Notes: generated from the sequence alone by a model not told the origin. A stretch of 64,000 bases of DNA from Actinomycetota bacterium (GCA_016201065.1 JACQDL010000014.1:99547-163546); one strand, 5' to 3'; counted from the stretch's first letter, positions 37,514-62,892 are shown. Numbers and translations are program-made.

Positions 37514-37539
37514 CCGTACAGGCCGCCTGACCTGTACGG
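37514..37539 (+). terminator. possible terminator hairpin after vdh
   Basis: ccgtacagg-N8-cctgtacgg. Confidence 0.4.
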
Positions 37540-37621
37540 TGGAAACCACGAGACATGAAGCCGCGTATCGGGGCTGCCGTGTGCAGGCCGCCCCGATGTT
37601 CTGTGCGAGGGGGTCGAGCCG

Positions 37622-37795
37622 ATGGGGCGCGGCCGAGCCAAGGCGAAGCAGCAGAAGGTCGCTCGGGAACTGAAGTACAGCTCCCCCAGCACCGACCTCT
37701 CAGCGCTGGAGCGTGAGCTCAGTGGCAAGCCGTCCGACAACGTCGATGACGAGGTTGACGACGAAGATGAGGAGCCCGACACCCGGCACCCGTAG
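37622..37795 (+). CDS. DUF3073 domain-containing small protein
   Basis: 57 aa, MGRGRAKAKQQKVARELKY... with an acidic tail and a GAGGGGG RBS. Below the ORF-track size cutoff. Confidence 0.75.
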   Translation: MGRGRAKAKQQKVARELKYSSPSTDLSALERELSGKPSDNVDDEVDDEDEEPDTRHP

Positions 37796-37863
37796 CTGAC
37801 CCGCGCGCGAAGGTCGGCCAAACCCGCTCAATGGTGCTGGTGTACGGGTCAGCCGCGGTCCGG

Positions 37864-40472: not shown

Positions 40473-40515
40473 GGGCGATGCTCCTCACAGCGGGGGCTAG
40501 CGGGCAGGCTTGAGT

Positions 40516-41154: not shown

Positions 41155-41167
41155 CTCGGCAGTGTAT

Positions 41168-41183
41168 TTAGACGGCCGTCCAA
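41168..41183. promoter_or_regulatory. imperfect palindrome TTAGACGGCCGTCCAA next to the TetR start
   Basis: 10-bp perfect core GACGGCCGTC, 14 nt upstream of the GTG at 41154. Confidence 0.3.
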
Positions 41184-41248
41184 TATTGCCGGATCAGGTG
41201 GAGCCGGTGATCCGCGTGGCGCCGGAACCGTCCGGGGCTGTCAGACCA

Positions 41249-41262
41249 GATCTGATCAGATC
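41249..41262. promoter_or_regulatory. perfect palindrome GATCTGATCAGATC within a (GATCA)n tract
   Basis: Lies about 100 nt upstream of the TetR gene. The same 18-mer caGATCTGATCAGATCag recurs at 58217-58234. Confidence 0.35.
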
Positions 41263-41265
41263 AGA

Positions 41266-41712
41266 TCAGATCAGCGGCAGGTAGCCGGACAGGTCAGCAC
41301 GGTCACCGCTGACCACCAGCCGGCCGTCGGCCACGGCGGCCGGCCAGCTCAGGCGACCACCGGCCAGCAGAAGCCAGGTCAGCGGGTCGGTCTCCACGAC
41401 GTTCGGCGGGGTACCCCGGGTGTGGCGCGGCCCGGGCACCGCCTGGACCGCGACATGCGGTGGGACCCGCAGCTCCACGGATCGCCCGGGGGCACGCTCG
41501 GCAAGCCGGTTCGCCAGCTCCACGACGGCGGCACGGAGCGCTGGCGCCGGGATGGCGCCGTCCTCGTCGGAGATGGCCAGCACCGCCTCGACGAGCTGCT
41601 GCGCCAGCAGCGGTCCCGCCGGCAACGCGCTCGCACAGTCCGGTGGCTCGCTCGCACCGAGCGTGGCCAGCGCAGCGCCCAGCCGCTCCGGGTCGTACCG
41701 CCGCCGCGCCAC
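41266..41712 (-). CDS. sterol carrier family protein
   Basis: [48 protein letters not shown] at 41712. Confidence 0.7.
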
Positions 41713-41722
41713 GGCGACCCGC

Positions 41723-44032
41723 TCAGCCCTCGAACAGGGCCGGCAGCGTGCCGCTCCACGCGGCGCGCAGCTCAGCCAGCGGAACCGCCAGCACCGCGTC
41801 GATGACCAGATCGGTGGAGCTCGCCTGGACGGTGCCGAGATCGGTCCAGGGCACGCCGTGGCTGCCGCACAGGTCAGCCATGGCTGCCCGGTCATCCGGC
41901 CGGACCGCCACCAGCGCCCGCCCTGCCGACTCGGCGAACAACCACACGAACGGGTCCGCCCCGGCGGGCAGCGTGATCCGCGCTCCGGCCTCGCCACGCA
42001 GGCAGGCCTCGACCAGGACCTGGGCCAGCCCACCGTCCGACAGGTCGTGCGCGGCGGCCAGCAACCCGGTGGCGGACGCCGCCACCAGCACCTCGGCGAG
42101 CGCGGCCTCGGCGGCCAGATCGACCTCGGGTGGGCGGCCACCGAGGTGCCGGTGCACCGTCCACGCCCACTCCGAGCCCCCGAACTCGGGGCGGGTCCGG
42201 CCGAGCAGCAGCAGCGCCGCGCCGTCCGCGCCACCGAACCCCATCGGCGTACGCCGGCGCACGTCGGGCAGCACCCCGAGCACGCCGACCACCGGTGTGG
42301 GCAGGATCGCGGTGTCCCCGGTGGAGTTGTAGAAACTCACGTTGCCACCGGTGACCGGCGTGCCGAGCGCCTGGCACCCGTCGGCCAGCCCGGTCACGGT
42401 CCGCTCGAACTGCCACATCACGCCCGGGTCCTCGGGACTGCCGAAGTTCAGGCAGTTGGTGATCGCGACCGGCCGGGCACCGGTGCTGGCCACGTTGCGG
42501 TACGCCTCGGCGAGGGCGAGCTGGGCGCCGGCGTACGGGTCGAGCCGGCAGTACCGGCCGTTGCCGTCGCATGCGACCGCGACGCCGAGCCCGGACACCT
42601 CGTCGACCCGGATCACGCCGGCGTTCTCCGGCTGGGCGAGCGCGGTGTTGCCCTGGACGTAGCGGTCGTACTGGTCGGTGACCCAGCTCTTGTCACACAG
42701 GTTCGGGCTGGCCACCAGGGCCAGCAGGGTGGCCCGGAACTCCGCCCCGGTGGCCGGCCTCGGCAGCCGGGCCGGGTCGTCGGCGACCAGGGCGTCCTGG
42801 TCGGCGGGACGGGCGAACGGCCGCTGGTATACCGGCCCCTCGTGGGCGACCGTGCGGGGCGGCACATCGACGATGGTCTCACCGTGCCAGGTGACCACCA
42901 GCCGCCCGCCCCGGCTGGCCTCCTCCGGTGAGACCGCGGTGACCTCGCCGATCACCCGGGCGTCGACATCCCACCTGGCACACACCGCGAAGAAGGCCGC
43001 GACGTGCTCGGGGGCGACCACCGCGCACATCCGCTCCTGGGACTCGCTGGCGAGGATCTCCTCCGCGCTCATCGACGGCTCGCGCAGGTGCACCCGGTCC
43101 AGGTCCACGACCATGCCGCCCTCGCCAGCGCTGGCCAGCTCGCTGGTGGCGCAGGACAGGCCCGCACCACCGAGGTCCTGGATGCCGACCACCAGGCCGG
43201 CGTCGTAGAGCTCCAGGCAGCACTCGATGAGCACCTTCTCGGCGAACGGGTCGCCAACCTGGACGCTGGGACGCTTCGCCGGCGCGCCGGAGTCGTCGAA
43301 CGTCGCCGAGGCGAGCACGGACACCCCACCGATCCCGTCCCGGCCGGTGCGGGCGCCGAACAGGATGACCTTGTTGCCGACGCCCGAGGCGTGCGCGAGC
43401 ATGATCCGGTCCGCCTTGAGCACTCCCACGCACAACGCGTTGACCAGCGGGTTGCCGGCGTAGCTCGGGTCGAAGACCAGCTCACCACCGACGTTCGGCA
43501 GGCCGAGGCAGTTGCCGTAGCCGCCGACGCCGGCCACCACGCCCGGCAGCACTCGCCGGGTGTCGGCCGCGTCGGCCGGGCCGAACCGGAGCGGGTCGAG
43601 GACCGCCACCGGCCGGGCACCCATCGCGAGGATGTCCCGGACGATCCCGCCGACCCCGGTCGCCGCACCCTGGTAGGGCTCGACGTACGACGGGTGGTTG
43701 TGCGATTCGATCTTGAAGGTGACGGCCCAGCCGTCGCCGATGTCGACCACCCCGGCGTTCTCGCCGATGCCCACCAGCAGCGCGTCCGAGGCGGGGGCCT
43801 TCTCGCCGAACTGGCGCAGGTGCACCTTGCTGGACTTGTAGGAGCAGTGCTCCGACCACATCACCGAGTACATCGTCAGCTCGGCGGCGGTGGGGCGGCG
43901 GCCGAGGATCTGCCGGATCCGGTCGTACTCGTCGTCCCGGAGCCCCAGCTCGGCGTACGGCTGTGGTTCGTCGGGAGTGTTCGTCGCCCGGGCCACGGTG
44001 TCCAGGGCGCTGGCGCTGGTCCCGGTGGTCAC
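41723..44032 (-). CDS. purL: phosphoribosylformylglycinamidine synthase subunit PurL
   Basis: [19 protein letters not shown] and related motifs. The GTG start overlaps the purQ stop. Confidence 0.95.
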
Positions 44033-44709
44033 GCGACGCCCACCAGGTGGGAGAGGACGGAGGTGAACATGCCCAGCCCATCGGCGCTCGGCCCGGTCAG
44101 CGGGTCGACCGCGTGCTCGGGGTGCGGCATCAACCCGACCACGGTGCCGGTCTCGTTGCACACCCCGGCGATGTCGCGGGCGGAACCGTTCGGGTTGCCC
44201 CGCAGGTACCGGAAGACCACCCGCCCCTCGGCCTCCAGCGCATCGAGGGTGCGTCGGTCGGCGACGTAGCCGCCCTCGCCGTTCTTCACCGGGATCCGCA
44301 GCTCAGCGCCCGCGCCGTAGGCCGACGTCCAGGGTGTGCGCACGCTGTCCACCCGCAGCCACTGGTCGCGGCAGACGAACCGGCGCTGCGCGTTGCGGAT
44401 CAGTGCCCCCGGCAGCAGGTGCGACTCGCAGAGCACCTGGAAACCGTTGCAGATGCCGAGCACCGGCAACCCGCCGCGGGCCGCGGACACCACCCGTTCC
44501 ATCACCGGGGCGAAGCGGGCGATCGCGCCGCAGCGGAGGTAGTCGCCGTAGGAGAAGCCGCCGGGGAGGACCACCGCGTCGACCCGGTGCAGGTCGGCGT
44601 CGCCGTGCCACAGCGGGACCGCCTGGGCGCCGGCCAGCCGCACCGCCCGCGCCGCGTCACGGTCGTCCAGCGATCCAGGAAATGTGACGATGCCAATGCG
44701 TGCAGTCAT
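44029..44709 (-). CDS. purQ: phosphoribosylformylglycinamidine synthase subunit PurQ
   Basis: IGIVTFPGS...GICNGFQ...MPHPE. Confidence 0.95.
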
Positions 44710-44860
44710 GAGCCGGCGGGCAAGGTCATGTGAGGTGACTCCCGGAGGTCGGGCGGCGGGTCACCACGAGCCTACCCGGCCCGATCCGCCCGGCCGGCCG
44801 GCGACCTGCCTTGTGGTTCGTCCAGCCGGGTGTCCTCCCCGATGCGGGACGACTCACGAC

Positions 44861-45094
44861 TCAGCCGGTGTGGACGGTGAACTCCTCGATCACCGGGTTG
44901 GCGAGGAGCGTCTCCGCGATCCGCCGCACCGTCTGCTCGGTCATCTCGTCGACGACGTCGAGCTCGAACCGCTTGCCCTGCCTGACGGCCCGGACCCCGT
45001 CGAACCCGAGCCGGGGCAGCGCGCCGAGGATCGCCTGGCCCTGCGGGTCGAGGATCTCCGGCTTGAGCATGACGTCGACTACGACTCGCGGCAC
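44861..45094 (-). CDS. purS: phosphoribosylformylglycinamidine synthase subunit PurS
   Basis: VPRVVVDVMLKPEILDPQGQAI.... GTG 45094 follows GGGAG. Confidence 0.85.
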   Translation of the reverse strand: MPRVVVDVMLKPEILDPQGQAILGALPRLGFDGVRAVRQGKRFELDVVDEMTEQTVRRIAETLLANPVIEEFTVHTG

Positions 45095-45179
45095 CGCTGA
45101 CTCCCTGATCGATCCGGATCGCCCCACGCAGGGTAGCGGCACACGGGGTAGCCGGCCCGGCGCTGCCCCACGGTGCAGG

Positions 45180-46055
45180 TCAGTCGGGCCAACGGGTGAA
45201 GCTCAGCCCGGTCAGCAGCTCGTACGCCTCGACGTAGCGACTCCGGGTCGCCTCGACGACGTGAGCCGGCAGCGGAGGCGGCGCCGAGACACGGTCCCAG
45301 CCAGAGTCGCGCACCAGCCAGTCCCGCACGTACTGCTTGTCGTACGACGGCTGCGACCGACCCGGCCGCCACTGGTCGGCCGGCCAGAACCGGGAGGAGT
45401 CCGGGGTGAGCACCTCGTCACCGAGCACGACGGTGCCGGACCGGTCGAGTCCGAACTCGAGCTTGGTGTCGGCCAGCAGGATGCCCCGGTCGGCGGCGAG
45501 ATCCCGGGCGGTGCCGTAGACGGCCAGGGTCAGCTCGCGGAGCCGGGTCGCGGTGCCGGCGCCGACCGCGTCCACCACCCGGTCGAGACCGACGTTCTCA
45601 TCGTGCTCACCGACGGCGGCCTTGGTGGCCGGCGTGAAGATCGGCTCGGGGAGCCGGGAGCCGTCGACCAGCCCGGCCGGCAGCGGGACCCCGCACACCG
45701 CCCCAGACTCGGCATAGTCGACCAGTCCGGAGCCGGCGAGGTAGCCACGCGCCACGCACTCGATCGGGAACATGGCCAGCCGGCGGACCAGCATCGCCCG
45801 GCCACGCACCTCGGCCGGTATCCGCGGGTCGTCCACAGCGACCAGGTGGCTGTGGACGATCGCGGCCAGCCGGTCGAACCACCACGCGCTCATCGCGGTG
45901 AGGATGCGCCCCTTGTCGGTGATCGGGGTGGGCAGCACCCAGTCGTACGCCGAGATCCGGTCGCTGGCCACCACCAGCAACAGCTCGTCGTCCACGGCGT
46001 ACAGGTCCCGGACCTTGCCCGTGTGCAGGTGCGGGTAGTCGGCGAGGGTCGGCAC
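45180..46055 (-). CDS. purC: phosphoribosylaminoimidazole-succinocarboxamide synthase
   Basis: HTGKVRDLY...[10 protein letters not shown]...[12 protein letters not shown] 46055 chosen. Confidence 0.9.
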
Positions 46056-46066
46056 GACCCGAGTCT

Positions 46067-46108
46067 GCCAGGCCGCCCGGGCCAGGCCGCCCGGGCCAGG
46101 CCGCCCGG
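46067..46108. repeat. 14-bp tandem repeat x3 in the purC-purB divergent intergenic region
   Basis: gccaggccgcccgg occurs three times in a row. The unit is not a multiple of 3. Confidence 0.85.
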
Positions 46109-46185
46109 GCCGGTCCGGTGGGCCGGTCCGATCGCCGTGCCGGACAATGATGGGGCCCCGACCCGTGACCCCTGATGAGTGAGCC

Positions 46186-47619
46186 ATGCCTGCCGCTCCC
46201 CCGATCGCCGACGTCCTCGCCACCCGGTACGCCTCGCCCGCCATGCGGCGGCTGTGGTCACCCGAGCACAAGGTCGTCCTGGAACGGCGGCTCTGGCTGG
46301 CCGTCCTGCGGGCCCAGCAGGATCTCGGCGTCGACGTTCCGCGCGGTGTGATCGAGGACTACGAGCGGGTCGTGGACCAGGTCGATCTGGCGTCCATCGC
46401 GGCCCGCGAGCAGGTCACCCGGCACGACGTGAAGGCGCGGATCGAGGAGTTCTCCGCGCTGGCCGGGCACGAGCACATCCACAAGGGGATGACCTCGCGG
46501 GACCTCACCGAGAACGTCGAACAGCTCCAGCTCCGCGACTCACTGCGGCTGGTGGCCGACCGGATGGTGGCGACCCTGGCCCGGCTGGCCACGCTGGCGG
46601 TGGAACACGCCGGCACAGCGCTGGTCGGCCGGTCGCACAACGTGCCCGCGCAGGCCACCACGCTGGGCAAACGGTTCGCCACGGCAGCCGAGGAGCTGCT
46701 GGTGGCGCATGCACGGGTGACCGAGCTGCTGGCCCGCTACCCGCTGCGCGGGATCAAGGGACCGGTCGGTACCGGCCAGGACATGCTCGACCTGCTCGGC
46801 GGTGACGAGCAGGCGCTGGCGGAGCTGGAACGGCGGGTCGCCGGGCACCTGGGCTTCGACCGGCTCCTCACCAGCGTCGGCCAGGTCTACCCCCGCTCGC
46901 TGGACTACGAGGTGCTCACCGCGCTGGTCCAGGTCGCCGCCGGGCCGGCCAGCCTCGCCACCACGATCCGGTTGATGGCCGGACACGAGCTGGTCACCGA
47001 GGGGTTCCGGGCCGGGCAGGTGGGGTCCAGCGCGATGCCGCACAAGATGAACACCCGCTCCTGCGAGCGGATCTCCGGGCTGGCGGTGGTGCTACGCGGG
47101 TACGCCGGGATGGTGGGCGAGCTGTCCGGCGCCACCTGGAACGAGGGGGACGTGTCCTGCTCGGTGGTCCGCCGGGTGGCGCTGCCCGGGGCGTTCTTCG
47201 CCGTGGACGGGTTGTTCGAGACGTTCCTCACCGTGCTGGACGAGTTCGGCGCCTACCCGGCCGTGATCGCGCGGGAGGTGGAGCGGTACCTGCCGTTCCT
47301 GGCCACCACGAAGGTGCTGATGGGCGCGGTCAAGCACGGCGTCGGGCGGGAGACCGCGCATGAGGTGATCCGCCAGCACGCTGTCGCGGTCGCGCTGGCG
47401 ATGCGGGAAGACGGCCAGGCCGGCAACGACCTCATCGACCGGTTGGCCGCCGATGGCCGGCTGGGGTTGTCCCGGGACGATCTGGCGACCCTGCTCACCG
47501 ACCCCCTGTCGTTCACCGGAGCGGCCGGCTCCCAGGTCACGGCCATCGCCGCCCGGGTCGCCGACGTGGTCCGCCGGCACCCGGAGGCGGCTGGCTACAC
47601 CCCCGCACCCATCCTCTGA
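46186..47619 (+). CDS. purB: adenylosuccinate lyase
   Basis: 477 aa with SSAMPHKMN signature. Confidence 0.95.
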
Positions 47620-47648
47620 CCCATCCCGACCACGGCACCCCGGCCGGA

Positions 47649-48065
47649 TCATGCTCGGTCCGGCGGCCGCGGCGGCACCGCCCCGTCCGGCGGCGGCTGC
47701 TGGCAGTCGCGGTGGTCGCACCAGGCCAGGCCCAGATAGCCGGGCGGGGCGCCCAACCCGTGGGCGACCCGCGCGAGCACGTCGTAGGTGCGCACCCGGC
47801 GACCACGAACGACCGCGCACACCTCCGGCTGCGACTGCCCGACCAGCGCCCCGATCGCGTTCTGGCTGTACCCCTGCCGCTGCAACAACCGGTACACCGT
47901 GCTCAGGTCCTGCCGGGCCAACGCCACCCGCATCACAGGTTCATCCCACAACCCCACATCCGGCCGCACCGGCACCGACCGCAACGACCACGAACGGCCG
48001 ACCGATCCACCAGAGATCATCTCGGCACCACGGCTCGCCGACTCCGGACTTTGCGGTGATCTCAT
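47649..48065 (-). CDS. small HTH (XRE-like) DNA-binding protein
   Basis: 138 aa from ATG 48065 (GGAAGG RBS). HTH-like YSQNAIGALVGQSQPEVCAVVRGRR. Confidence 0.65.
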   Translation of the reverse strand: MRSPQSPESASRGAEMISGGSVGRSWSLRSVPVRPDVGLWDEPVMRVALARQDLSTVYRLLQRQGYSQNAIGALVGQSQPEVCAVVRGRRVRTYDVLARVAHGLGAPPGYLGLAWCDHRDCQQPPPDGAVPPRPPDRA

Positions 48066-48221
48066 CGGTATCGCCTTCCGGTTGACTGCCGCCACGATCG
48101 CCACGATCGCCACGAAGGCACCGGGTCGGTCGTACAATTTGTGCGATTCAATCCTTGGTGAGTGAGGAAGGCTCGGCGAACCCGCTCGAGCACTTGGTCG
48201 ACGAAAATGGAGGCATCCGCG

Positions 48222-49460
48222 ATGGAAACGGGTGCAATCGGCAAGCGGGTGCGGTACTGGCGAGACCGCCGTGGTCTGACCCGTCGACATTTCGCCGACC
48301 TTGTCGGGCGTTCATCCAGCTGGGTCGACAAGATCGAGTCCGGGGAACGCCACCTGGACCGGCTCTCCGTGCTCGACCAGGTCGCGAATGCTCTGAATGT
48401 TCCGTTGCAGGTCTTGCTAGACGACGATGCGTTCCGGTTGCGCGCGCAATGTGTGGACGCCCCCGAAGCCGCCGCGATCCGCATGGCGCTCCAACAGTGG
48501 ACACCGGCGGCCGGTCCCCCGCATCCAGCCACCGACACCGCGGCGACGGCACGCGAGCCGGAGCTGCGTCGGTTGCGGCGCCAGGTCACCTACGCCTGGC
48601 TGGCATTCCAATCCGCGAACTACGCCACGCTCGGGTCGCTCCTGGCCGCACTGGTCACCGACACCCAGCACGCACGAGACACGCTCGTCGGTGACGACGC
48701 CGCGACGGCAACCGCCATGCTCGCGCAGGTGTACCAGATCATCACCTCGACCGTCCGCAAGCTGGGTCACGTCGATCTGGAATGGGTGGCCGCGGACCGA
48801 GCGATGCGGTGTGCTGAGCAGATTGGTGACGTCACACTCTACGGCGGGGCTGCGTTTCGGCTCGTCAACGCCATCCGGGACAACAACGGCGCGCCCGCAG
48901 CCGTCACCGCGACCCGGGCAACCGCCGATCACTTGCGCCATCACGGGAAACCCGCCACCACACCACAGGCCCGGTCCCTGTACGGGCACCTGATGCTGCA
49001 AGGCGCCATGGCGGCCGCAGCCGCCGACGACGCATCAAGCGTCGCGGAACTGCTGCGGGAGGCTGAGCACACCGCGGAGATGCTCGGGACCGACCGCAAC
49101 GACTTCTACACCGCGTTCGGCCCCACCAACGTCACCATCCACGAGGTCGCCGCCCTCGTCGAACTCCGTGAATGGCGCCCCGCGCTCGCCGTCACCGAAC
49201 GGCTGAGCCGGGACCGGCTCGCCGCGTTGCCCAAGGAACGGCGCGCCAACCACCTGCTGGACCTCGCCCGCGCCCACAGCCTCGGCGGACACCGCGACGA
49301 AGCCACCTGGTCGCTGTTGGAGGCCGACGCGCTCGCACCGAACGAGATCCGATGCCGCCCCGTGGCCCGGGACCTGGTCGCCGACCTGGTCAGACGGTCC
49401 CGGACCCGCCCGTCCTTCGACTTGCAGCGACTCGCCGCACGGGTCGGCGTCCCCGCGTGA
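48222..49460 (+). CDS. XRE-family transcriptional regulator with long helical (TPR-like) C-terminal domain
   Basis: IGKRVRYWRDRRGLTRRHFADLVGRSSSWVDKIESGER. GGAGG lies 8 nt before ATG 48222. Confidence 0.8.
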   Translation: METGAIGKRVRYWRDRRGLTRRHFADLVGRSSSWVDKIESGERHLDRLSVLDQVANALNVPLQVLLDDDAFRLRAQCVDAPEAAAIRMALQQWTPAAGPPHPATDTAATAREPELRRLRRQVTYAWLAFQSANYATLGSLLAALVTDTQHARDTLVGDDAATATAMLAQVYQIITSTVRKLGHVDLEWVAADRAMRCAEQIGDVTLYGGAAFRLVNAIRDNNGAPAAVTATRATADHLRHHGKPATTPQARSLYGHLMLQGAMAAAAADDASSVAELLREAEHTAEMLGTDRNDFYTAFGPTNVTIHEVAALVELREWRPALAVTERLSRDRLAALPKERRANHLLDLARAHSLGGHRDEATWSLLEADALAPNEIRCRPVARDLVADLVRRSRTRPSFDLQRLAARVGVPA

Positions 49461-50035
49461 CACCCCCACCGGACCGCACCCGCCCGGTGCTGTACGTGAT
49501 CGCCTGCGCGGCACCACCGACCAGCCGGGTCGGCACCCTGGTCACCCTCGCGTACGACGGCGGCTGGGACGTGTGCGTGATCCTCACCCCGCAGGCGGTG
49601 CGCTTCGCCGACGTCCCGGCGCTGGAGACGTTGACCGGGCACCCGGTGCGCAGCCAGTACAAGGCACCCGGAACAGTCGACGTGCTCCCCCCGGCGGACG
49701 CGATGATCGTCGCCCCCGCCACCTGCAACACGATCAACAAGTGGGCCTGCGGGATCAGCGACACCCTGGCGCTGGGTCTGGTCACCGAGGCGATCGGCAA
49801 GAAACTGCCGCTGGTCGCGCTGCCGTTCACGAACGCCGCTCAGGCCGCCCACCCGGCGTTCGTCCGCCACGTTGGCGAACTGCGCGGCTGGGGTGTACGG
49901 GTGCTGTTCGGCCCCGACGTCTACCCCCTGCACGAACCCGGCACGGGCTCGCGGTACCTGGACATCTTCCCCTGGCACCTCACGCTGCGAGCCCTACCGG
50001 AGCACCCTCCGAGGCCCCCGCGCGCACCCCACTGA
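49457..50035 (+). CDS. HFCD-type flavoprotein (CoaC/EpiD-like fold)
   Basis: VLYVIACAAPP...IVAPATCNTINKWACGISDTLA (PASANT-like motif); GTGA overlap with the XRE gene stop. Confidence 0.8.
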   Translation: MTPPPDRTRPVLYVIACAAPPTSRVGTLVTLAYDGGWDVCVILTPQAVRFADVPALETLTGHPVRSQYKAPGTVDVLPPADAMIVAPATCNTINKWACGISDTLALGLVTEAIGKKLPLVALPFTNAAQAAHPAFVRHVGELRGWGVRVLFGPDVYPLHEPGTGSRYLDIFPWHLTLRALPEHPPRPPRAPH

Positions 50036-50449
50036 TCAAGTACGAACGGCCCGTCCGGTGCGGCTCCGGAGCACCGCCATCGTGTCCAGCTCCACGGGGA
50101 ACACGGCCAGACCCGAGTCCGACCGGCACCCGGACAGTACATCGTCAACCGACTTCGGCCCCGGCATGGGTCAGGCCCCGTTCCCAAAGGTCATGGCGGG
50201 GTGAGTCAGGTTAGACGGGGCGAGTCGTCCAGGTCGAAGCAGTGCTTGTCGATGCCCATCTCGTGGGCGCGAACGACGGGTTCGGTGGGGTGGATTGTCA
50301 TCAGGCGGCCCAGTTCCTTGACGGAGAACGAATGGAAGAAACGCTTGAGGTCGGTCAGCAGCTCGCCGACCACTCAGACCAGCGCGTCAACGTCGTCGTC
50401 GACCGGCCCGGGCCAGGCAGTCGTGCCTGAAGAGCTCGCGGCGTTGATG

Positions 50450-51319
50450 TCACGGTTGGCGGTCCCACACGGTTCCATGCGTGCTTCCCTGCGTCGGCTC
50501 ACCCGGAGGTACGGCGAGGTCGTTGAGCGCCGCGACGACGATATTCCAGGCGATCCGCACGCTGTCGCTGTCCGGCGCATGGCCATCGAGGTGCTGCCGT
50601 CTGGGATGCACGAGGTTGCGGTGCTCGCGCAGGACGTGCGCGTAGTCCACAACGTCCTTTGCGACCCATCCCTCACGTCCGGCAATGTCGATCAGCGACT
50701 GAAGGTGGTCCCGTGGCTGTCGATCCTGGTCCAGCCGAGCGCACGCCACTGTGTAGAGCACGCCTTCCAACAGACTGCCGAGCATGATCACCGCAGCGAG
50801 CGGGGCGCCCTGCTGCCAGCAGGTGCGTGCCTCGATCAACCTGCGGTCGAGCATGGCACCGAACTCCTGATCACTGACGATGGCGGACATGTCAGCCACC
50901 AGCTCGACCGGGGTCTGGCTGTCCAACCGGTGGAAGGTTCGCTCCCGCCGCCGCAAGCGACTCTCACCCCTGACGTCGACAACCTCGTATCCCTCCACCG
51001 CCAGCAGCTTGTTCAGCTCGTCGAAGACGGCGGTGCGGACAGCGGGATCGTCGAGGTACTCCCTCGGATCCACTACCCGCAGCAGGATTGCCGCAAGCGC
51101 CGCCGGGTCGTCCTTCCGCTCGCGCAACTGCTCAATCACCCAGGCCCGGCGACCGCCTTCGACCGGTCCGGTCCAGCTCCACCCGGCTGCCTCGAAGAAT
51201 GCGGCGATCTCATAGCCCGGGCGGTAGTACGGGGTTGTGTCGTCGCCGCAGATCAGATCGGCAACGCGGTCGAGCACCTTCGTGTCCAGCGTGATCTCGA
51301 TCGCCTCAACGCCGCTCAT
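50450..51319 (-). CDS. HEPN-domain protein with AbiJ-like N-terminal domain (candidate abortive-infection effector)
   Basis: 289 aa. The C-terminal helical domain carries LREHRNLVHP (an RNxxxH motif at 50606-50620). The start ATG overlaps the helicase stop (ATGA). Confidence 0.7.
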   Translation of the reverse strand: MSGVEAIEITLDTKVLDRVADLICGDDTTPYYRPGYEIAAFFEAAGWSWTGPVEGGRRAWVIEQLRERKDDPAALAAILLRVVDPREYLDDPAVRTAVFDELNKLLAVEGYEVVDVRGESRLRRRERTFHRLDSQTPVELVADMSAIVSDQEFGAMLDRRLIEARTCWQQGAPLAAVIMLGSLLEGVLYTVACARLDQDRQPRDHLQSLIDIAGREGWVAKDVVDYAHVLREHRNLVHPRRQHLDGHAPDSDSVRIAWNIVVAALNDLAVPPGEPTQGSTHGTVWDRQP

Positions 51320-54300
51320 CGCAGCTCTCCCCGCATCCCGTGACCCTGATCCGCGCTGCCGGTTTCCTTGTCGTCCGTCTCCGACGAGCCCTCCTCCTCG
51401 TCGTCCTCGTGGTCCTCGTCCTCGTCCATCTCGACGAGCTCGACCGGCTCCCAGGGGGTGACGCTGTCCCCGGGGTCCTGGAATGGCTCGATCCCACGGG
51501 CCCGCAGCGCGGTCCACAACGGGGCCAGCGCACGGTCCCGGTCGAACTCGAATTCGCTCTCCCGGATGCGGAGCACCTCCCAGCGCATCCGGTGCAGCTC
51601 GCGGTCCCGCCGCGCATCCGACGCCACCTGCTCGACGCTGGTGTGCCAGCGATGCCCGTCGCACTCCACCGCGAGCCGGCCGCCGTCGCCGACGACAAGG
51701 AGGTCCAGCCGGCGTGAACCAACCGGGTACTGCGGCACGACGTGGTACCCGCGCCCACGGATCTCGCGGAAGACCCGCTGCTCGAACAGCGACTCGAACG
51801 GGGCACACGGTCGCGTGTCGCTGACCTCGTCGAGCTCCAGCGACCGTCCGTACGTCGAGGGCGGGTCTTGCATGTAGTCAAGTAGGGACCACCGCAGATC
51901 GTCGGGTTTGAGTTCGCCGGCCCGCACCGAGGTGAACAGCCACATCTGGTCCTTGGCCCGGCTGGCGGCCACGTTGTAGGACTGTTGGGCCATGATCGCG
52001 CGTTGCGCCCGTGGCGGGTTGGCGACCACCATCGACAGGAAGATCACGTCACGCTCGTCGCCCTGGAAGTCGGCCGGGACACCGACCCGAACCTTGCGTT
52101 CGACACGCTGCTCGGGGGTTAGCCTGGCGTTGAGTTCGTGCTCCAGCAGCCGCACCTGGCCGCGGCCCTGGAGCACGACGACGCCGAAGGTCTTCGCGGT
52201 GTAACGCGGGTCGTTCACGCAGCGGGTCAGCTCGTCGGCGATCATCTCGGCCTCCACCGGATTGCGCAGGGTGGCGTTGCGCCCCTCGGTGAACGCGCCG
52301 GTGACGGTCACGACCTTCAGCGGCTCCAGGTCGGCGGCGGTGCGCTCCCGCAGCGGGATCAGTCCGGGGACCCCACCCGCGCCGTAGAACTGGTTCGACG
52401 ACCAGTTGATGATCTCGGGCACGCAGCGGAAATGCTCACGGAGCCGGATCACGGCGTCCTTGCCGGACCGGGCCGACAGCAGGCCGTAGAGGTTTGACTT
52501 GGGCGTGAAGATCATGCGGATCTCCTCGTCCGCGGCTCCGAGGTAGCGGGGAAGGCTCTCGAAGATCCGGTCCTGCTGGCCCATCCTGGCCTCACCGGGT
52601 GTGCACTGCTTGTCGTCGCCAACCACGATCACCCGGGGCGCCAACCAGAGCAGGAACAAGTGCTCCATCCCGACCTGGCTCGCCTCGTCGACAATGACGA
52701 CGTCGAAGGAGTCACGCTCGACGGCAAGGTTGTCGAGCAGGTTCGGCAGAGGCACCACCCAGGCAGGTACCGCCCCCTTGGCCTTCTCCATCGCCGCCCG
52801 GGCGGCACTCTGGAACGCCCTGACCCGCTTGCCGGTCCCGGCGCCGACCTTTGTCATGTGGTCCCGGTAGGCGCGCAGTGCCCTGGCGTGCGCGTCGGTC
52901 ATCCGGTCCAGGCACGCCAGGAGCGCCTCAGTGCCGGCCAGTCGCTGTGTCACCAGCTTGAGTTCGTCCTCGACCCGGGTGAACTCATCGAGCAGCTCCC
53001 GCTCGCGGGTGGCGGTCCGCGAGCGCATGACGAAATCCCGTGCCTTGGACCAGGCCCACGCGGCGGCGAGCTCCGGCAGCCGTTGGTCCCAGACAGGCTC
53101 GGCAGCGGTCCGCTGGAGCAGCTCCAGCAGCGCCGGATGCACCGTCCGCAGTTGCTCGGTCAGGTGCGCCAGCCGCATCGCGTCATGCCGCTCCGCCTCA
53201 GCGCGGGCCAGCTCCTCCAGACCGGTGCGGTAGCCATCGGTGTCGCGCGGCGGTATCGCCCGCAGCAGGGTGGCCAGTTCGGGACAGCCCTTCGGGCTGC
53301 CCGCAGCCGCCTGGACCCACCGGTGTAGCTCCTCGGTCTCGCCCCAGGCACGCTCATGCCGCAGCCTGCGGCGGGCTGCCGGCACCGCATCGAGCACCTC
53401 GATCAACCCGGTAGGGTCGGGGAACTCCGTGGACAGACCGGTTGGCGCCAGCATGGTGGACACGCGGGCGCGGAGGTCGGCGAGCTGCTTGATCTTGTCC
53501 AGCAGCTGGGCCTTGTCGGCGAGATCGGACAGCGTCACCGGCAGCCTGCCGATCGGGACCTCGACGCTGCGGTCAGCCCACGCCGCAGCCAGCTGCACCA
53601 CGGCGACCTCCGCCTCCAAGCGCTCGACCGCCGCGACGACGTGCGCAAGAACGTCGGGCGACCGGCCGTTGACCTGCACCAGCGCCAGAAAGCCCTGGGC
53701 GTCACGCTGCACCGGGCTGGGAAACCGCCGCTTCAACCGGCCGCCGCCGCACAGGTAGTCAGCGAGCGCGCGGCCCGCATCGACGGCACCGCGGGCCGCG
53801 CCGAGCGATTCCCGGGCGATCGGCTCGACCTCGACGACGTAGCTGACCCCTTGGGCGTCGAGCTGTCGCTGCAACCGCTCAGGTTCGTCCTTGAGCGCGC
53901 TGAGGGCGTCCCACAGTTGGCGGCCCCTGCCGGCGAGGTGGTCACCGACGGCCCGGACCACCCAGTCGGGTGCCGAGATGGTGTTCCCGGTCCCAGCGAA
54001 CCCGATCTCGCCCACCAGCCGGACCACGTCCACCCGCAGTTGCTCCAACCCGGCAAGGTGCGCATCGCCCAGCAACGCCAAGCGCTGCGGCAGCGGGCCG
54101 TCGGCGGCGGCGGCGCGGCTCGCCTCCTCCTCGGCGGTGACCAGGTTGGCGAACGCCGCAGCGGTGGGGATTTCCTCGGCGGTCGGGATCCACTGGGTCG
54201 TCCGGGCCCGCCGCGCCGGAGAATCGTGCAGGAGCAGATCCCGTAGTTCGACGACGTGCTGCACTAGAAACGGTGGCTGGTCCGGCGACTCGCCGCTGAG

Positions 54301-54360
54301 GGACGGAAACCACCCGTGCTGAGGTTCCCCCAACTTCACCTGGCGCACGAGGTCGCCCAT
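51316..54360 (-). CDS. SF1 (Upf1/DNA2-like) helicase-family protein with C-terminal DUF559/Vsr-like endonuclease domain
   Basis: Motifs FDVVIVDEASQ (DEASQ at 52675-52689), VIVVGDDKQ, HFRCVPEIINWSSNQFY, DFQGDERDVIFLSMV and YNVAASRAKDQMWLF, then RRLDLLVVGDGGRLAVECDGHRWH. I found no canonical Walker A. ATG 54360 chosen. Confidence 0.8.
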   Translation of the reverse strand: MGDLVRQVKLGEPQHGWFPSLSGESPDQPPFLVQHVVELRDLLLHDSPARRARTTQWIPTAEEIPTAAAFANLVTAEEEASRAAAADGPLPQRLALLGDAHLAGLEQLRVDVVRLVGEIGFAGTGNTISAPDWVVRAVGDHLAGRGRQLWDALSALKDEPERLQRQLDAQGVSYVVEVEPIARESLGAARGAVDAGRALADYLCGGGRLKRRFPSPVQRDAQGFLALVQVNGRSPDVLAHVVAAVERLEAEVAVVQLAAAWADRSVEVPIGRLPVTLSDLADKAQLLDKIKQLADLRARVSTMLAPTGLSTEFPDPTGLIEVLDAVPAARRRLRHERAWGETEELHRWVQAAAGSPKGCPELATLLRAIPPRDTDGYRTGLEELARAEAERHDAMRLAHLTEQLRTVHPALLELLQRTAAEPVWDQRLPELAAAWAWSKARDFVMRSRTATRERELLDEFTRVEDELKLVTQRLAGTEALLACLDRMTDAHARALRAYRDHMTKVGAGTGKRVRAFQSAARAAMEKAKGAVPAWVVPLPNLLDNLAVERDSFDVVIVDEASQVGMEHLFLLWLAPRVIVVGDDKQCTPGEARMGQQDRIFESLPRYLGAADEEIRMIFTPKSNLYGLLSARSGKDAVIRLREHFRCVPEIINWSSNQFYGAGGVPGLIPLRERTAADLEPLKVVTVTGAFTEGRNATLRNPVEAEMIADELTRCVNDPRYTAKTFGVVVLQGRGQVRLLEHELNARLTPEQRVERKVRVGVPADFQGDERDVIFLSMVVANPPRAQRAIMAQQSYNVAASRAKDQMWLFTSVRAGELKPDDLRWSLLDYMQDPPSTYGRSLELDEVSDTRPCAPFESLFEQRVFREIRGRGYHVVPQYPVGSRRLDLLVVGDGGRLAVECDGHRWHTSVEQVASDARRDRELHRMRWEVLRIRESEFEFDRDRALAPLWTALRARGIEPFQDPGDSVTPWEPVELVEMDEDEDHEDDEEEGSSETDDKETGSADQGHGMRGELR

Positions 54361-54509
54361 CGTGCCTCGGACTACGGCCTCTGCGCGGTCGGCGGCAGCG
54401 CCGGGCAGGCCACCCGGATCGCCGCAGCCACCGGTGGCTCGCACACCACCGGGGTGGACGCCACCGAGATCGTCACCACCCTCGCCGAGCTGATCGCCGC
54501 GGCGGTCCT

Positions 54510-55055
54510 CGTACGCCAAGCACTACACGAAACTCGCCCACTACCTGGACGAATTGGACGCCGCCGCTCCGCCGGTGCCGGTCGCCGAGCGGCTGCCCGC
54601 AGCGCTGGGACCGCGGATGCTCACGCTGGCCGGGACGCGCACCAGGGGCGCGCACCCATACCTGACCACACCCGAGCACACCCACACCGCCCGGAAACTG
54701 CTGGGACCCGGGCCGCTGCTCGCCCCCGAGCAGAAAGTCGTCTGGGGCGACCGACCCGGCCCGGGCCAGATCCGTCACCCGGCAGGCGCTCGCGCTCTAC
54801 CTCAGCCTGCCGAACTACCTGCACAGCCTCACCCGGCTCGGCTTCAGCGACGACGACATGGCCGGCGGCGGCAGCGACCGGCTGGTCGACAGCCTCGTTG
54901 CCTGGGGCGACCTCGACACCATCGCCGCCCGGGTGGCCGAGTACCGGCAGGCCGGCGCGGACCATGTCGCCGTGCAGATCCTCCAGGTCGATGGCGGCAC
55001 CGGCCTACCCCGCGCGGAGTGGCGGGAACTCGCCCCGGCGCTCGTCGGTCGATAG
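54510..55055 (+). pseudogene. LLM-class F420-dependent oxidoreductase, 5'-truncated and frameshifted
   Basis: Only the C-terminal half is present (YAKHYTKLAHYLDELDAA...GAHPYLTTPEHT...APEQKVV). After a frame change near 54749 it continues as TDPARARSVTRQALALYLSLPNY...GGSDRLVDSLVAWGD...GADHVAVQ. Confidence 0.8.
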
Positions 55056-55145
55056 CGCTCGTCCACGGACCGGTGGGTGGGGCACGGCCTTGGCCGCACC
55101 CCACCCACACTCGGCACCCACCCTGGACCCGACCGGTAGGTCCGG

Positions 55146-55853
55146 TCATTCGCGGCGGGGCTTCACCGGCCGGGTGTGGATCGCGGTGCCGGTGACCCGC
55201 TGCGCGCCGTGCTCGGACTCAGACTCGCCGCGCCCGGAGCCGGAGCCGGAGCCGCGCGACGGACCGGTCGAGGTGTGGATCGCGGTGACCTCCAACGGCT
55301 GGTCGGCGATGATGTCCAGCACCCCGAGTAGCAGCGTGCCACCAGTCGGCAGGTCGGCGTCGCGCAGGCTGCAGCAGTCGTCCATGGTCGCCTCGCCGGG
55401 GGCGAGGTCGACCGCGGGCAGCTTTCGGGGCTTGCCGACCTTGGGTTCCCGGACCACCCGGTCACCGACGACCAACGGGACGAACCGCTTCTCGATCCGC
55501 ACCGTGCAGTTCGTCGGGTTGTAGATGGTCACCGCCGTCGCGTACCGGCCGTCCACCACGGTCTGGCACTTCTCCCGCTCCGGCCCCGACGGCTCCAGGC
55601 CACAGACCATCTCCACGGCGTGATGCCACCGGCACGCCGGCACCCGGATGCGGACCCGCTTGTGGGCCACCACGACCCCATCCGCGACCACGTCCAGGCT
55701 GCCGGTGAAGACCTGGTCCTTCTCGGCGCACGTCATCGAGCCGGTCCAGGTCACGGTGAACGGCAGCACGTGCTCCACGTCACCAGGGAGCGGACCGTAG
55801 CCGGCAGGGGCGATCGACTCCACGAACGGCGCGATCGAGGCGCTCGGCACCAT
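55146..55853 (-). CDS. hypothetical Cys-containing protein, or the C-terminal part of the frameshifted VWA gene
   Basis: ORF 55146..55916 overlaps the VWA ORF by 137 nt in another frame. It contains ...YATAVTIYNPTNCTVRIEKRF... and a GSGSGSG tail. The start is uncertain. Confidence 0.4.
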   Translation of the reverse strand: MVPSASIAPFVESIAPAGYGPLPGDVEHVLPFTVTWTGSMTCAEKDQVFTGSLDVVADGVVVAHKRVRIRVPACRWHHAVEMVCGLEPSGPEREKCQTVVDGRYATAVTIYNPTNCTVRIEKRFVPLVVGDRVVREPKVGKPRKLPAVDLAPGEATMDDCCSLRDADLPTGGTLLLGVLDIIADQPLEVTAIHTSTGPSRGSGSGSGRGESESEHGAQRVTGTAIHTRPVKPRRE

Positions 55854-56691
55854 CGGTGACGTCGCCCGCCGCGCCGGAGATGGCCGCGCACACCGGGTCG
55901 TGGCCGGGCGCGTCACCGAACCACACCAGGATCCGCCTGCTGTCCGGCCGCCAGCCGATCGCCGGATCGGTGGCGATCGTGTGCAGGGCGTAGAGCTGCC
56001 CTTCTGGTGTATCCAGGCCGCCGAACGCGGCCCAGGTCGACACCGCGGCGGTGACCGCCGCCGCGCCTGGCGTCGGGGCGAGCTGGTGCCCGAACGGGTA
56101 CGGGTTGAACTCCCCGCCGGGGAAGTCCTTGTAGTTGCCGGCCCCCCACGCCACGTCGTAGAAGGCCAGCGATGGGTCGCTGACGATCGCGGTGATGCCG
56201 AGCTTCACCGCGTCGATCACGGGCCCCATGCTGCCTGTGGTGTCGGCGAGCAGGTAGACGTCGGCCTTCGGTGCCGCACCGGACTTCGGCACGGTCACGG
56301 TGACCGTCTCCCGCTCGGTGGCACACTCCGGCAAGGTCAGGTTGTTGACCGTCGGGTCGATGCCCACCGGCTCCCGGGGCACCAGGATCGGCCCGGTCGG
56401 CAGGTGCAGGTCACCGACGAACAGCGGACGGCCGGCCCGCGACTCCAGCTCGCGCCGGTCCCGGATCACTCCCGCCGCGTCGACGGCGACGGATGCGGCC
56501 CGGTTGGGCTCGCCCCGGACGGCCACCGAGACCAGCCTGAGCTGCTCACCCGATGGCAGCAGATCGGTCGCCTCGGCGACCAGCTCAAGCTCGGCGCTGC
56601 CGAGCAGGTCGGTGGCCGCACCGAGCACCGACTCTGGTACCACCCGACGGACCGGCCCGTCGCTGCCCTGCCCACGTGCTGACTTGCTCAT
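55780..56691 (-). CDS. von Willebrand factor type A (VWA) domain protein
   Basis: MIDAS-like DVYLLADTTGSMGPVID and ILVWFGDAPGHDP. ATG 56691 follows GGGGAGGG. Confidence 0.75.
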   Translation of the reverse strand: MSKSARGQGSDGPVRRVVPESVLGAATDLLGSAELELVAEATDLLPSGEQLRLVSVAVRGEPNRAASVAVDAAGVIRDRRELESRAGRPLFVGDLHLPTGPILVPREPVGIDPTVNNLTLPECATERETVTVTVPKSGAAPKADVYLLADTTGSMGPVIDAVKLGITAIVSDPSLAFYDVAWGAGNYKDFPGGEFNPYPFGHQLAPTPGAAAVTAAVSTWAAFGGLDTPEGQLYALHTIATDPAIGWRPDSRRILVWFGDAPGHDPVCAAISGAAGDVTDGAERLDRAVRGVDRPCRLRSAPW

Positions 56692-56886
56692 GACGAGCCC
56701 TCCCCGCGATCGGACTGTCCGAGCCGACCGGTGCGGTGACCCACCACCGCCGGCGCTCGACGCTGACCTCCGTTCCGGGTCCGGGGTCAGGCGCGGGGAT
56801 ACCGGATGGCCCGATCGGGCAACGCGATTCACCCGCGGGTGCTGCGGGTGAGCTCCGCGCCGAGGAGCTGCGCAGCGGTGTGTCGG

Positions 56887-58134
56887 TCAGCGCGGGACGG
56901 TGATCTCGTCCCGCACCGCGCGCAACGCGATGTCGGTGCGGTGGTGGGCTCCGGCGAACCCGACCTTGCCGACCCGGTCGTACGCGGCCTGCCGGGCAGC
57001 CGCAAGATCCGGACCGGTACCGGTGACCGACAGCACCCGTCCGCCGGAGGTGACGACCGCGCCGTCACGCCGGAGCTGGGTACCCGCGTGCAGCACACCC
57101 GGCAGCTCGCCGCCGATGACCACGTCCCCGGTCCGCGGGTCGGCCGGGTACCCGGCCGCGGCGACCACGATGGTCACCGCCGCGGCGTCCCGCCACACCA
57201 GGGGTGGCTGGCTGGCCAGCCGGCCGGTGGCCGTGGCGGCAAGCAGGCCGGCCAGCGGCGTCTCCAGCAGGGCGAGCACGACCTGGGTCTCCGGGTCACC
57301 GAACCGGCAGTTGAACTCGATCACCTTCGGCCCGGCCGCGGTGAGCACCAGGCCGACGTACAGCAGACCGACGAACGGCGTGCCACGCCGGGCCAGCTCG
57401 GCGACCGTCGGTCGCACCACCCGGGCCAGCACGTCCGCCACCAGACCAGGAGGCGCCCACGGCAGCGGCGCGTAGGCCCCCATGCCGCCGGTGTTGGGAC
57501 CGGTGTCGCCGTTGCCGACCCGCTTGAAGTCCTGCGCCGGCAGCAGCGGCACCGCGGTCTCGCCGTCGACCAGGCAGAACAGCGAGACCTCCGGGCCGGC
57601 GAGGTACTCCTCGACCACGACCTTCGACCGGCCGGCGGCGTGGGCCAGCGCCGCGTCCCGGTCGTCGGTCACCAGCACGCCCTTGCCGCCGGCCAGCCCA
57701 TCGTCCTTGACCACGTACGGCGCGCCGAGCTCGGCGAGGGCCGCCTCGACCTCCGCCTCGGTGACGCACTCCCGGGCGGCGGCCGTCGGCACCCCGGCCG
57801 CGGCCATCACCTCCTTGGCGAACGCCTTCGACCCCTCGATCCGGGCGGCCGCCGCGGACGGGCCGAAGCAGTCGATGCCGGCGGCCCGGATCGCGTCGGC
57901 GGCACCGGCCACCAGCGGCGCCTCCGGGCCGACCACCACCAGGTCGGCGGCGAACTCGGTGGCCAGCGCCGCGACCGCGGCGGGCGAGCCGAGGTCCACC
58001 GGGTGGAGCTCGGCGAGGGAGCCGACGCCTGGGTTACCGGGCGCGCAGATCAGATGGGTGACGCCGGGGTCGCCGGACAGCGCCAGGCACAGCGCATGCT
58101 CGCGGGCACCGCTTCCGAGAACGAGGACTCGCAC
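56887..58134 (-). CDS. purD: phosphoribosylamine-glycine ligase
   Basis: MRVLVLGSGAREHAL...ATP-grasp...GPNTGGMGAY. Confidence 0.95.
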   Translation of the reverse strand: MRVLVLGSGAREHALCLALSGDPGVTHLICAPGNPGVGSLAELHPVDLGSPAAVAALATEFAADLVVVGPEAPLVAGAADAIRAAGIDCFGPSAAAARIEGSKAFAKEVMAAAGVPTAAARECVTEAEVEAALAELGAPYVVKDDGLAGGKGVLVTDDRDAALAHAAGRSKVVVEEYLAGPEVSLFCLVDGETAVPLLPAQDFKRVGNGDTGPNTGGMGAYAPLPWAPPGLVADVLARVVRPTVAELARRGTPFVGLLYVGLVLTAAGPKVIEFNCRFGDPETQVVLALLETPLAGLLAATATGRLASQPPLVWRDAAAVTIVVAAAGYPADPRTGDVVIGGELPGVLHAGTQLRRDGAVVTSGGRVLSVTGTGPDLAAARQAAYDRVGKVGFAGAHHRTDIALRAVRDEITVPR

Positions 58135-62610: not shown

Positions 62611-62628
62611 GAAGCCATCCCTTTCCCA

Positions 62629-62760
62629 ACGCCTGCGAGGTGAGCTGTCGGGTTCGGGCGGGGAAGTAGCCCGGCCGCGGTCGCGGCTTCACCCCAAGGC
62701 CAGCGATCGGCCAGAAAATGGGTCCCCCGGCTCCTGCCCATGATCCGTCTCGTAGCGTTC
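62629..62760 (-). promoter_or_regulatory. c-di-AMP riboswitch (ydaO/yuaA class) in the Rpf-like gene leader
   Basis: The RNA reads ACGCU...AGCCGGGGGACCCA...GGGGUGAAGCC...CCCGAACCCGACAGCUCACCUCGCAGGCGU and ends 18 nt before the GTG at 62610. Confidence 0.8.
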
Positions 62761-62892
62761 ATGGCTCGTCGTTGCGGCCGGGCAGGACTCGGCGTTCGCC
62801 GCACGTGCGAGGCCCCCCAAGCGAGGCGCTTCCCCGCACGCTAGGTCGTCGACGGCGTGGCCGCAAGCACGCCACGCGGCGGGCAGGCAAGA

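Follow-up and report, generated by a model that had tools for sequence, protein, structure and literature searches.

The 9.3-kb interval between the purine biosynthesis genes purB and purD (positions 47620–56886) in an Actinomycetota bacterium genome (GCA_016201065.1, JACQDL010000014.1:99547-163546) is probably a layered structure built by non-site-specific events, the larger part of which is a composite 6.9-kb insertion and not a mobile island. The whole stretch of DNA analysed, hereafter the window, is 64,000 nucleotides long and has a GC content of ~71%. An initial annotation, made from the sequence alone, regarded the entire interval as an accessory island located in a variable hotspot of the kind where defence genes tend to accumulate. 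Our verdict is that this is an ordinary insertion that has decayed, set in a rearranged pur neighbourhood, and that it does not represent a functional defence island. The gene map of the interval and its two flanks, based on profile searches and on frame analysis of the GC content at third codon positions (GC3), is the following:

46186–47619, plus strand: purB (adenylosuccinate lyase), left flank (Pfam Lyase_1 and ADSL_C)
47649–48113, minus strand: small HTH gene (HTH_31, E=3.5e-5)
48222–49460, plus strand: XRE (HTH_31) regulator with an NsdA-like TPR C-terminal half, 412 amino acids (aa)
49457–50035, plus strand: PF02441 flavoprotein (HFCD/CoaC-like), 192 aa (Pfam E=7e-12)
50424 to 50215 (extent of homology; the called open reading frame (ORF) is 50206–50373, 55 codons), minus strand: stub of an ASCH gene, 3'-truncated
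50450–51319, minus strand: DUF4145/HEPN-family protein, 289 aa, apparently intact, with an AbiJ_NTD3-like N-terminal region
51316–54366, minus strand: superfamily 1 (SF1; Upf1-like) helicase with an MTES_1575 Vsr-type nuclease, 5'-truncated (AAA_12 and MTES_1575 matches)
54367–54507, plus strand: inverted copy of an internal VWA segment (X, 141 bp), encoding SDYGLCAVGG...ELIAAAV
54508–55055, plus strand: F420-dependent LLM (TIGR03620) pseudogene (NCBIfam E=1e-37, C-terminal 100 aa)
55146–55852, minus strand: 3' part of the VWA gene, in another frame than the 5' part in the window
55853–56691, minus strand: 5' part of the VWA (Integrin_beta-type) gene (Pfam PF00362)
56887–58134, minus strand: purD, right flank (Pfam GARS_N, GARS_A and GARS_C)

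As the initial annotation had stated, the interval contains no purine genes, and every gene that it named is present in the profile map. The damage that it had noted in two or three of them is real, although the count is higher: four genes are affected, namely, those for the helicase, the ASCH protein, LLM and VWA.

The layered structure emerges from comparison with L181, a 3770-bp Logan contig (SRR26421365) from the closest relative identified, which carries the best match to the VWA gene. L181 contains the C-terminus of purD and a 604-aa VWA gene, followed by an intact 286-aa LLM gene and the C-terminus of purB, both on the opposite strand. The two pur genes are convergent, with their stop codons 3010 bp apart. 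The purB, purD and VWA proteins of L181 and the window are ~73–75% identical, with 72–80% identity at the nucleotide level. Nucleotide homology stops 3 bp after the purB stop codon, at 47622, and picks up again at 54500. In L181, purB and LLM are separated by a 117-bp spacer, and the HTH, XRE, flavoprotein, HEPN and helicase genes are all absent between purB and purD. This layout indicates that VWA, LLM and the convergent orientation of purB and purD are older than the insertion of 47623–54507. Since L181 retains the 5' end of LLM and the spacer, it appears to represent the ancestral state, with the block being gained in the lineage of the window. Judging from this alignment, the lineage-specific part would thus be 47623–54507, or ~6.9 of the 9.3 kb, and ~3 kb would be common to both lineages. 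The accessory character ascribed to the interval holds for the ~6.9 kb, where L181 is empty, but not for VWA and LLM, which are present in L181; likewise, the empty site whose existence would support acquisition is found in L181 (purB, 117-bp spacer, LLM) for 47623–54507 and not for the two other genes. The conservation of gene set and order throughout the family that would be expected of an ancestral region is not seen between purB and purD. The notion of a single island is not sustained, however, because at least two unrelated pieces are involved and three junctions cut through genes.

The right-hand piece of the insertion carries the helicase, DUF4145 and ASCH genes and is most clearly incomplete in the helicase. 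The latter aligns to residues ~522–1476 of a full-length 1481-aa protein, with the first ~520 codons missing, and homology begins exactly at 54366, the junction with X. Walker A motif GPPGTGKT (residue 385 in full-length relatives) is absent from the window helicase, and Walker B motif DEASQ is present. Foreign sequence lies 6 bp upstream of the helicase start, leaving no space for a promoter. We compared the helicase-DUF4145 contexts of Kibdelosporangium, Micromonospora and an 85%-identical metagenomic relative. Directly upstream of the DUF4145 homologues lies a helicase gene whose product, with AAA_11, AAA_12 and MTES_1575 domains, is 1481, 1496 or at least 1549 aa long, and the two genes overlap by 4 bp, as they also do in the window. 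The opposite end of the piece falls within the 55-codon ORF, the orphan coding remnant of the initial annotation, which was identified as an ASCH stub by exhaustive search of representatives. It is 65–76% identical to the N-terminal ~65 residues of 116–206-aa proteins, two of which contain the ASCH domain (PF04266); the domain itself is missing from the stub. This ORF is not kept beside DUF4145 in Kibdelosporangium or Micromonospora. Given that the helicase and ASCH genes are both truncated, the 4.15-kb piece 50215–54366 is cut at both ends. The N-terminal half of the helicase was not found elsewhere in the window; it is also absent at the purC-purB junction, and a simple inversion splitting the helicase gene was rejected on these grounds.

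The 289-aa protein belongs to a family of actinobacterial proteins of 265–305 aa. Its own match to PF13643 (DUF4145) is weak (E=0.12, 12.9 bits versus the cut-off of 23.1 bits), with 22 of 30 close homologues matching this family (best E=3.5e-6) and two of the 30 matching AbiJ_NTD3. In the motif LREHRNLVHP, residues R231, R234, N235 and H238 are invariant in 30 sequences, and R231–H238 constitutes an Rx6H arrangement that fits the R-x(4-6)-H test for HEPN domains. DUF4145 is a recognized HEPN family (PMC3710099). The HEPN gene and the remaining part of the helicase gene are open reading frames. Nevertheless, without its N-terminal ~520 residues and P-loop, the helicase is predicted to be unable to hydrolyse ATP, and the helicase-HEPN module would be non-functional here.

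Related pairs occur in other settings. In Micromonospora sp. NBC_01813 (L176, 3472–13012), the intact helicase-DUF4145 pair is located between a microbial PARG-like gene and a serine recombinase gene (PF07508), suggesting a mobile context for the pair in Micromonospora. In the P0122 contigs (Logan SRR26421362, SRR26421369), which come from the same metagenome series as L181, the 85%-identical DUF4145 gene adjoins an ABC2 transporter gene and the gene for the helicase of at least 1549 aa. If the P0122 contigs and L181 belong to one organism, the HEPN module would be more similar than the core genes, a hint of recent exchange.

The left-hand piece of the insertion is a cassette consisting of the small HTH gene, the XRE-TPR gene and the flavoprotein gene. 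The flavoprotein gene overlaps the XRE gene by 4 bp, whereas the small HTH gene, called as 154 or 94 aa depending on the assembly, is divergent from it and 55% identical to the 92-aa divergent HTH protein of the L180 cassette. XRE-TPR homologues are 405–420 aa long and 51–65% identical, and in the contexts read each is followed by a flavoprotein gene with a 4-bp overlap. The window flavoprotein is 72–75% identical to the partner genes in L178–L180. Genes around the cassette are unrelated from one homologous context to the next. Plasmid records, mostly from Streptomyces, match the inserted DNA, the flavoprotein gene accounting for five of the 10 matches listed; among them, a 59.9-kb linear plasmid carries the XRE-flavoprotein pair with a flavoprotein 56% identical to the window copy. 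Pairs of XRE-TPR and PF02441 genes on Streptomyces plasmids and chromosomes share the same two-gene architecture with the 4-bp overlap, at 56–75% identity for the flavoprotein and 36–65% for XRE, but the divergent small HTH gene is kept only in some copies (L180) and not in others (plasmid L185). As far as the reading frames indicate, the cassette in the window is complete, and its XRE-flavoprotein core is widespread in Actinomycetota. In L185 (Streptomyces sp. NBC_01136 plasmid NZ_CP108634.1, 5160–11310), the pair adjoins genes for a major facilitator superfamily (MFS) transporter, TfuA-like and YcaO-like proteins and a 52-codon ORF, a layout resembling a thioamide cluster of ribosomally synthesized and post-translationally modified peptides (RiPPs). 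HFCD flavoproteins in thioamide RiPP clusters are Cys decarboxylases. No YcaO or TfuA genes are found near the pair in the window or in L178–L180.

The right third of the interval contains the older genes, LLM and VWA, both of which are damaged. The window LLM lacks ~106 codons at its 5' end and aligns, in two frames, to residues 107–283 of the 286-aa LLM of L181. The frameshift near 54700–54740 is also present in the sister contig L087, which retains 82 bp more of the gene (75 codons lost). The match to TIGR03620 reaches 130 bits and covers only profile positions 183–280, below the cut-off of 219.8 bits. The VWA protein rebuilt from the window and sister contigs is ~600 aa long, and its full-length homologues of 575–604 aa are 60–72% identical; the 3' part of the window gene aligns to their C-terminal ~235 residues. 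In a more distant genome, the VWA homologue adjoins LeuRS, ADH and PAP2 genes and not pur genes. Segment X (54367–54507) is identical to positions 12389–12529 of L084, where it lies in frame within the VWA gene. The sister contigs L084, L085 and L086 depart from the window after GTCACCGA at 55853. Two losses are specific to the window, one of 245 bp after X, the other of 259 bp that follow the 5' part of VWA in the sister assemblies and are absent from the window at 55852/55853, with the VWA frame being shifted. These two ~250-bp losses take away complementary parts of the two arms of a repeat. Judging from the sister assemblies, an internal VWA segment would form a perfect inverted repeat of 304 bp on either side of ~1.3 kb containing the LLM fragment and the 3' part of VWA (arms at L087 1–119 and 1414–1717, and at window 54367–54507 and 55712–55852). 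Recombination between the 304-bp arms would switch VWA between full-length and disrupted forms. A two-state invertible segment was considered as the cause of contig breaks and fails to explain the two junctions of the window.

Contigs from sister assemblies support the adjacency of purB and purD. JACOSJ010000046.1, which encodes purB and belongs to an unclassified 'Actinobacteria bacterium' metagenome-assembled genome (GCA_016178905.1), corresponds to window 36186–54507 at 99.99% identity and ends there. JACOSJ010000021.1, with purD, follows the window from 64000 back to 55853, beyond which it has 96 bp and then 141 bp, the last 141 bp being identical to window 54367–54507 in the opposite relative orientation. 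JACOSJ010000038.1 (L087, 1717 bp) and the Logan contig L088 carry window 54500–55852. To the left of this segment they have an inverted copy (119 bp) of 55712–55830 and then the 82 additional bp of LLM, and to its right, 22 bp and X in reverse complement. Breaks at the same two positions, with overlaps of 30 bp, occur in Logan contigs from three runs, and three other assemblies of the same population break within 54367–55852. The resulting chain runs from the purB side through a 304-bp VWA fragment, the LLM fragment, spacer and 3' part of VWA, the 304 bp inverted within VWA and the rest of VWA to purD. Since contigs 46, 38 and 21 and the Logan contigs chain via their 141-bp or 30-bp ends, the adjacency is supported independently of the window. 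There is no microhomology at junction 55852/55853, which favours a real strain variant for the second loss. Single-base differences at 47381, 48190 and 56236 also set the window apart from every NCBI and Logan contig of this population, showing that it comes from a distinct, very close strain or assembly.

None of the usual signs of site-specific integration is found in the interval, in agreement with the initial annotation, which had seen no recombinase, tRNA or flanking direct repeat. Pfam, NCBIfam and PADLOC searches of all interval ORFs detected neither recombinases nor transposases, and unassigned sequence in the interval amounts to less than 700 bp, leaving no room for a recombinase. The only tRNAs of the window are at 3.2 kb and 28 kb, the nearest being 19 kb from the interval. 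An att-site search revealed no direct repeat of at least 16 nt common to both interval ends, and repeat searches with seeds 7 and 11 gave no repeat, whether inverted or direct, that would account for the junctions or serve as an att site. The inserted DNA has no match in the phage collection.

Among the matches listed, we retrieved 160 loci with purB or purD. Both genes are present in 29 of them and are co-directional in every case, in the order purD→purB. The median gap between them is 80 bp; it is at most 200 bp in 20 loci and exceeds 200 bp in nine, with a maximum of 9.1 kb. Homologues of the interval genes were found in none of the 160 loci. The genes seen in the larger gaps are unrelated to defence: they encode an aminotransferase, an ion channel, an MFS transporter, a Ser/Thr kinase and a DUF402 protein. 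The purD-purB junction is thus moderately permissive in the sampled loci and not a defence hotspot. The expectation that defence genes accumulate here is therefore weakly supported: the junction does vary, as seen from the nine larger gaps, but the cargo elsewhere is non-defence and the module of the window itself is predicted to be dead. Relative to the consensus order purD→purB→purC (window 45180–47619 compared with loci L020, L057, L078, L108 and others), purB is inverted in the window. L181 shares this inversion, so that the rearrangement belongs to the clade and predates the insertion. The 130 bp between the divergent purC and purB genes, where the orientation of purB departs from the actinobacterial consensus, contain ~3.6 copies of a 14-bp tandem repeat, GCCAGGCCGCCCGG (46067–46117).

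GC3 is 0.92–0.96 in the pur genes and 0.81–0.90 in the inserted genes (DUF4145, 0.81; XRE, 0.82; small HTH, 0.85; helicase, 0.88; flavoprotein, 0.90), with values of 0.90–0.93 for VWA and 0.88–0.89 for LLM, and GC content dips to 0.62–0.68 at 48–51 kb. The composition mildly supports a foreign origin of the block and longer residence of VWA and LLM.

We suggest the following history of the interval. In the first layer, common with L181, purB is inverted, with VWA and the convergent F420-dependent LLM gene located between purD and purB. The second layer is lineage-specific: 47623–54507 would have entered between the stop codon of purB and LLM. One of its pieces is the complete small-HTH/XRE-TPR/flavoprotein cassette; the other comprises 4.15 kb from a helicase→DUF4145(HEPN)→ASCH operon, with one cut in the helicase gene and one in the ASCH gene. 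The insertion would have deleted the purB-LLM spacer and the first 75–106 codons of LLM, leaving an inverted duplicate of the internal VWA segment at the helicase/LLM junction. Two further losses of ~250 bp would have occurred in the strain of the window, one of them inactivating VWA. Because there is no integrase, att repeat or tRNA and the breakpoints lie inside genes, we infer that DNA fragments were captured at a chromosome break and joined by illegitimate end-joining or template-switch repair.

Several points weigh against this reconstruction. The order of events is inferred, as is the repair mechanism, and the comparison relies on one short contig (L181, 3.8 kb). No genome closer than ~75% protein identity was found among the matches listed. 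The best match in the purB scan of genome contigs is 77% and in the purD scan of metagenome contigs 74%; the two scans yielded no sister strain and no true empty site among these matches and are usable for order-level synteny. The composition of the block is only mildly different, and its tetranucleotide distance is within the normal range of the window. Short-read contigs cannot fix the orientation between the 304-bp inverted repeats, nor the intactness of VWA in sister strains, and the complementary pattern of the ~250-bp differences could also be an assembly artefact.

The last point leads to an alternative in which the purB-purD adjacency, or the structure of the right third, is a chimeric join at a repeated k-mer. 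Contigs 46 and 21 both end in the same 141-mer (window 54507), the Logan contigs stop 30 bp into it, segments of 245 bp and 259 bp found in contigs 38 and 21 are missing from the window, and the window-specific truncated VWA product is not on record. We consider such an artefact unlikely, since the three NCBI contigs chain unambiguously from the purB side to the purD side, L181 has purB and purD 3 kb apart with the same LLM/VWA content, and another assembly has these genes on a 231-kb contig; moreover, junction 55852/55853 offers no microhomology for an assembler to bridge, which points to real reads. Acquisition in one step of a single integrative island, or of an integrative and conjugative element (ICE) or prophage whose integrase has since been lost, seems quite improbable. 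Variation of the site among genera, GC3 slightly below that of the flanks, the divergent XRE/HTH pair of a kind seen in the switches of mobile elements, and the serine recombinase next to the Micromonospora helicase-HEPN pair are all consistent with it. These have to be set against the lack of an integrase, tRNA, att-like direct repeat or match in the phage collection, the presence of ~3 kb (VWA and LLM) in L181 without the rest, and the composition of the remainder, which is made of two unrelated pieces with internal truncations.

The same comparator bears on whether the whole 9.3 kb could be ancestral to the clade, with 6.9 kb being secondarily deleted in L181. L181 is a single comparator and deletions are common in such regions, but a deletion could not recreate the intact LLM 5' end and purB-LLM spacer of L181, and the helicase and ASCH genes of the window are truncated at the junctions of the block, making this scenario very improbable. 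We give hardly any credence to a working defence island in which the HEPN protein and the helicase/nuclease would act jointly against phages under XRE control. The helicase does match PDC-S37, MkoA, MkoC and Hhe in PADLOC and ProA in NCBIfam, the residues of the HEPN motif do not vary, and both the HEPN gene and what remains of the helicase gene have open reading frames. However, helicase residues 1 to ~521, including Walker A, are missing, no promoter space is left, all family scores are far under the curated cut-offs, and PADLOC detected no other defence system. A layered interval with a composite, decayed insertion thus remains the probable reading.

The main value of this reading is a correction: the apparent 9.3-kb island resolves into an older clade rearrangement and a younger 6.9-kb captured patch. 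It also has a practical side, as assemblies of this population break at the 304-bp inverted repeat, and 'pseudogene' calls for VWA and LLM as well as helicase-start calls there are not trustworthy without reads. The conserved helicase-DUF4145 pair of Kibdelosporangium, Micromonospora and others is a reasonable defence candidate in those genomes, not in this one.

Elsewhere in the window, the remaining pur genes and the genes beyond purD are arranged as follows:

41723–46055, minus strand: purL, purQ, purS and purC
beyond purD, all on the minus strand: purA, DUF3151 gene, trypsin-like protease gene, transglycosylase gene and fba

A c-di-AMP (ydaO-type) riboswitch is found at 62615–62767 on the minus strand (67.8 bits versus the gathering score of 38). 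It is located upstream of the transglycosylase (Rpf-like, PF06737) gene, between fba and the trypsin-like protease gene. A c-di-AMP riboswitch preceding such a transglycosylase gene is a known actinobacterial arrangement.

Among known defence systems, the window helicase is closest to ProA (E=5e-34), PDC-S37 (9e-28) and Hhe (5e-16). It shares with them the Upf1-like AAA_11/AAA_12 motor followed by a Vsr-fold nuclease of the MTES_1575/DUF559 type. The full-length relatives, for which the candidate system PDC-S37 is the best PADLOC match, are 1480–1550 aa long and not 1800–1900 aa, and are accompanied by a separate DUF4145 gene. Scores also remain far from those of true members: the window copy and a full-length relative reach 117 and 183 bits against the cut-off of 1500 for ProA (NF058533), and 57 and 121 bits against the cut-off of 2000 for Hhe (NF042953). 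DUF4011, used as a test for Hhe, has no match in the window helicase or in the full-length relative. The resemblance to Mokosh is confined to the helicase core (MkoA/MkoC, E=1e-21 to 3e-24); a PLD domain is absent, and the nuclease is of the Vsr type. PADLOC identified no complete system in the window, only partial, sub-family helicase matches and generic HTH matches. MTES_1575-type proteins have been described as fusions of SWT1/Abi2 HEPN, transglutaminase, SF1 helicase, Vsr nuclease and winged HTH (wHTH) domains (Anantharaman et al. 2013, PMC3710099). The proteins considered here likewise combine an SF1 helicase with a nuclease of this family (PF18741) and are associated with HEPN, but the HEPN domain is of the DUF4145 family and is encoded, unfused, by a separate downstream gene with a 4-bp overlap; transglutaminase and wHTH domains were not detected. 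It is possible, if somewhat short of probable, that the operon found intact in other Actinomycetota, with the 1480–1550-aa helicase-nuclease, the AbiJ_NTD3-DUF4145 protein and, in the donor, the ASCH protein, constitutes an anti-phage or abortive-infection system not yet characterised, akin to Hhe, ProA and PDC-S37 but separate from them, with the window holding a recently captured, decapitated copy. If so, this copy would show how such systems are shed.

As a locus, the interval interrupts a conserved gene order with a foreign-looking block, as do tRNA-targeting islands, ICEs and prophages. It differs from them in having no integrase, att repeat, tRNA, conjugation or phage genes, and in its boundaries, which lie inside genes. 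It comes closer to integrase-less 'genomic islets' and defence hotspots, with which it shares lineage-specific cargo between core genes and a junction where other genera hold unrelated inserts. Unlike in defence hotspots, the cargo of the other genera is non-defence, the module of the window itself is predicted to be dead, and VWA and LLM are common with L181.

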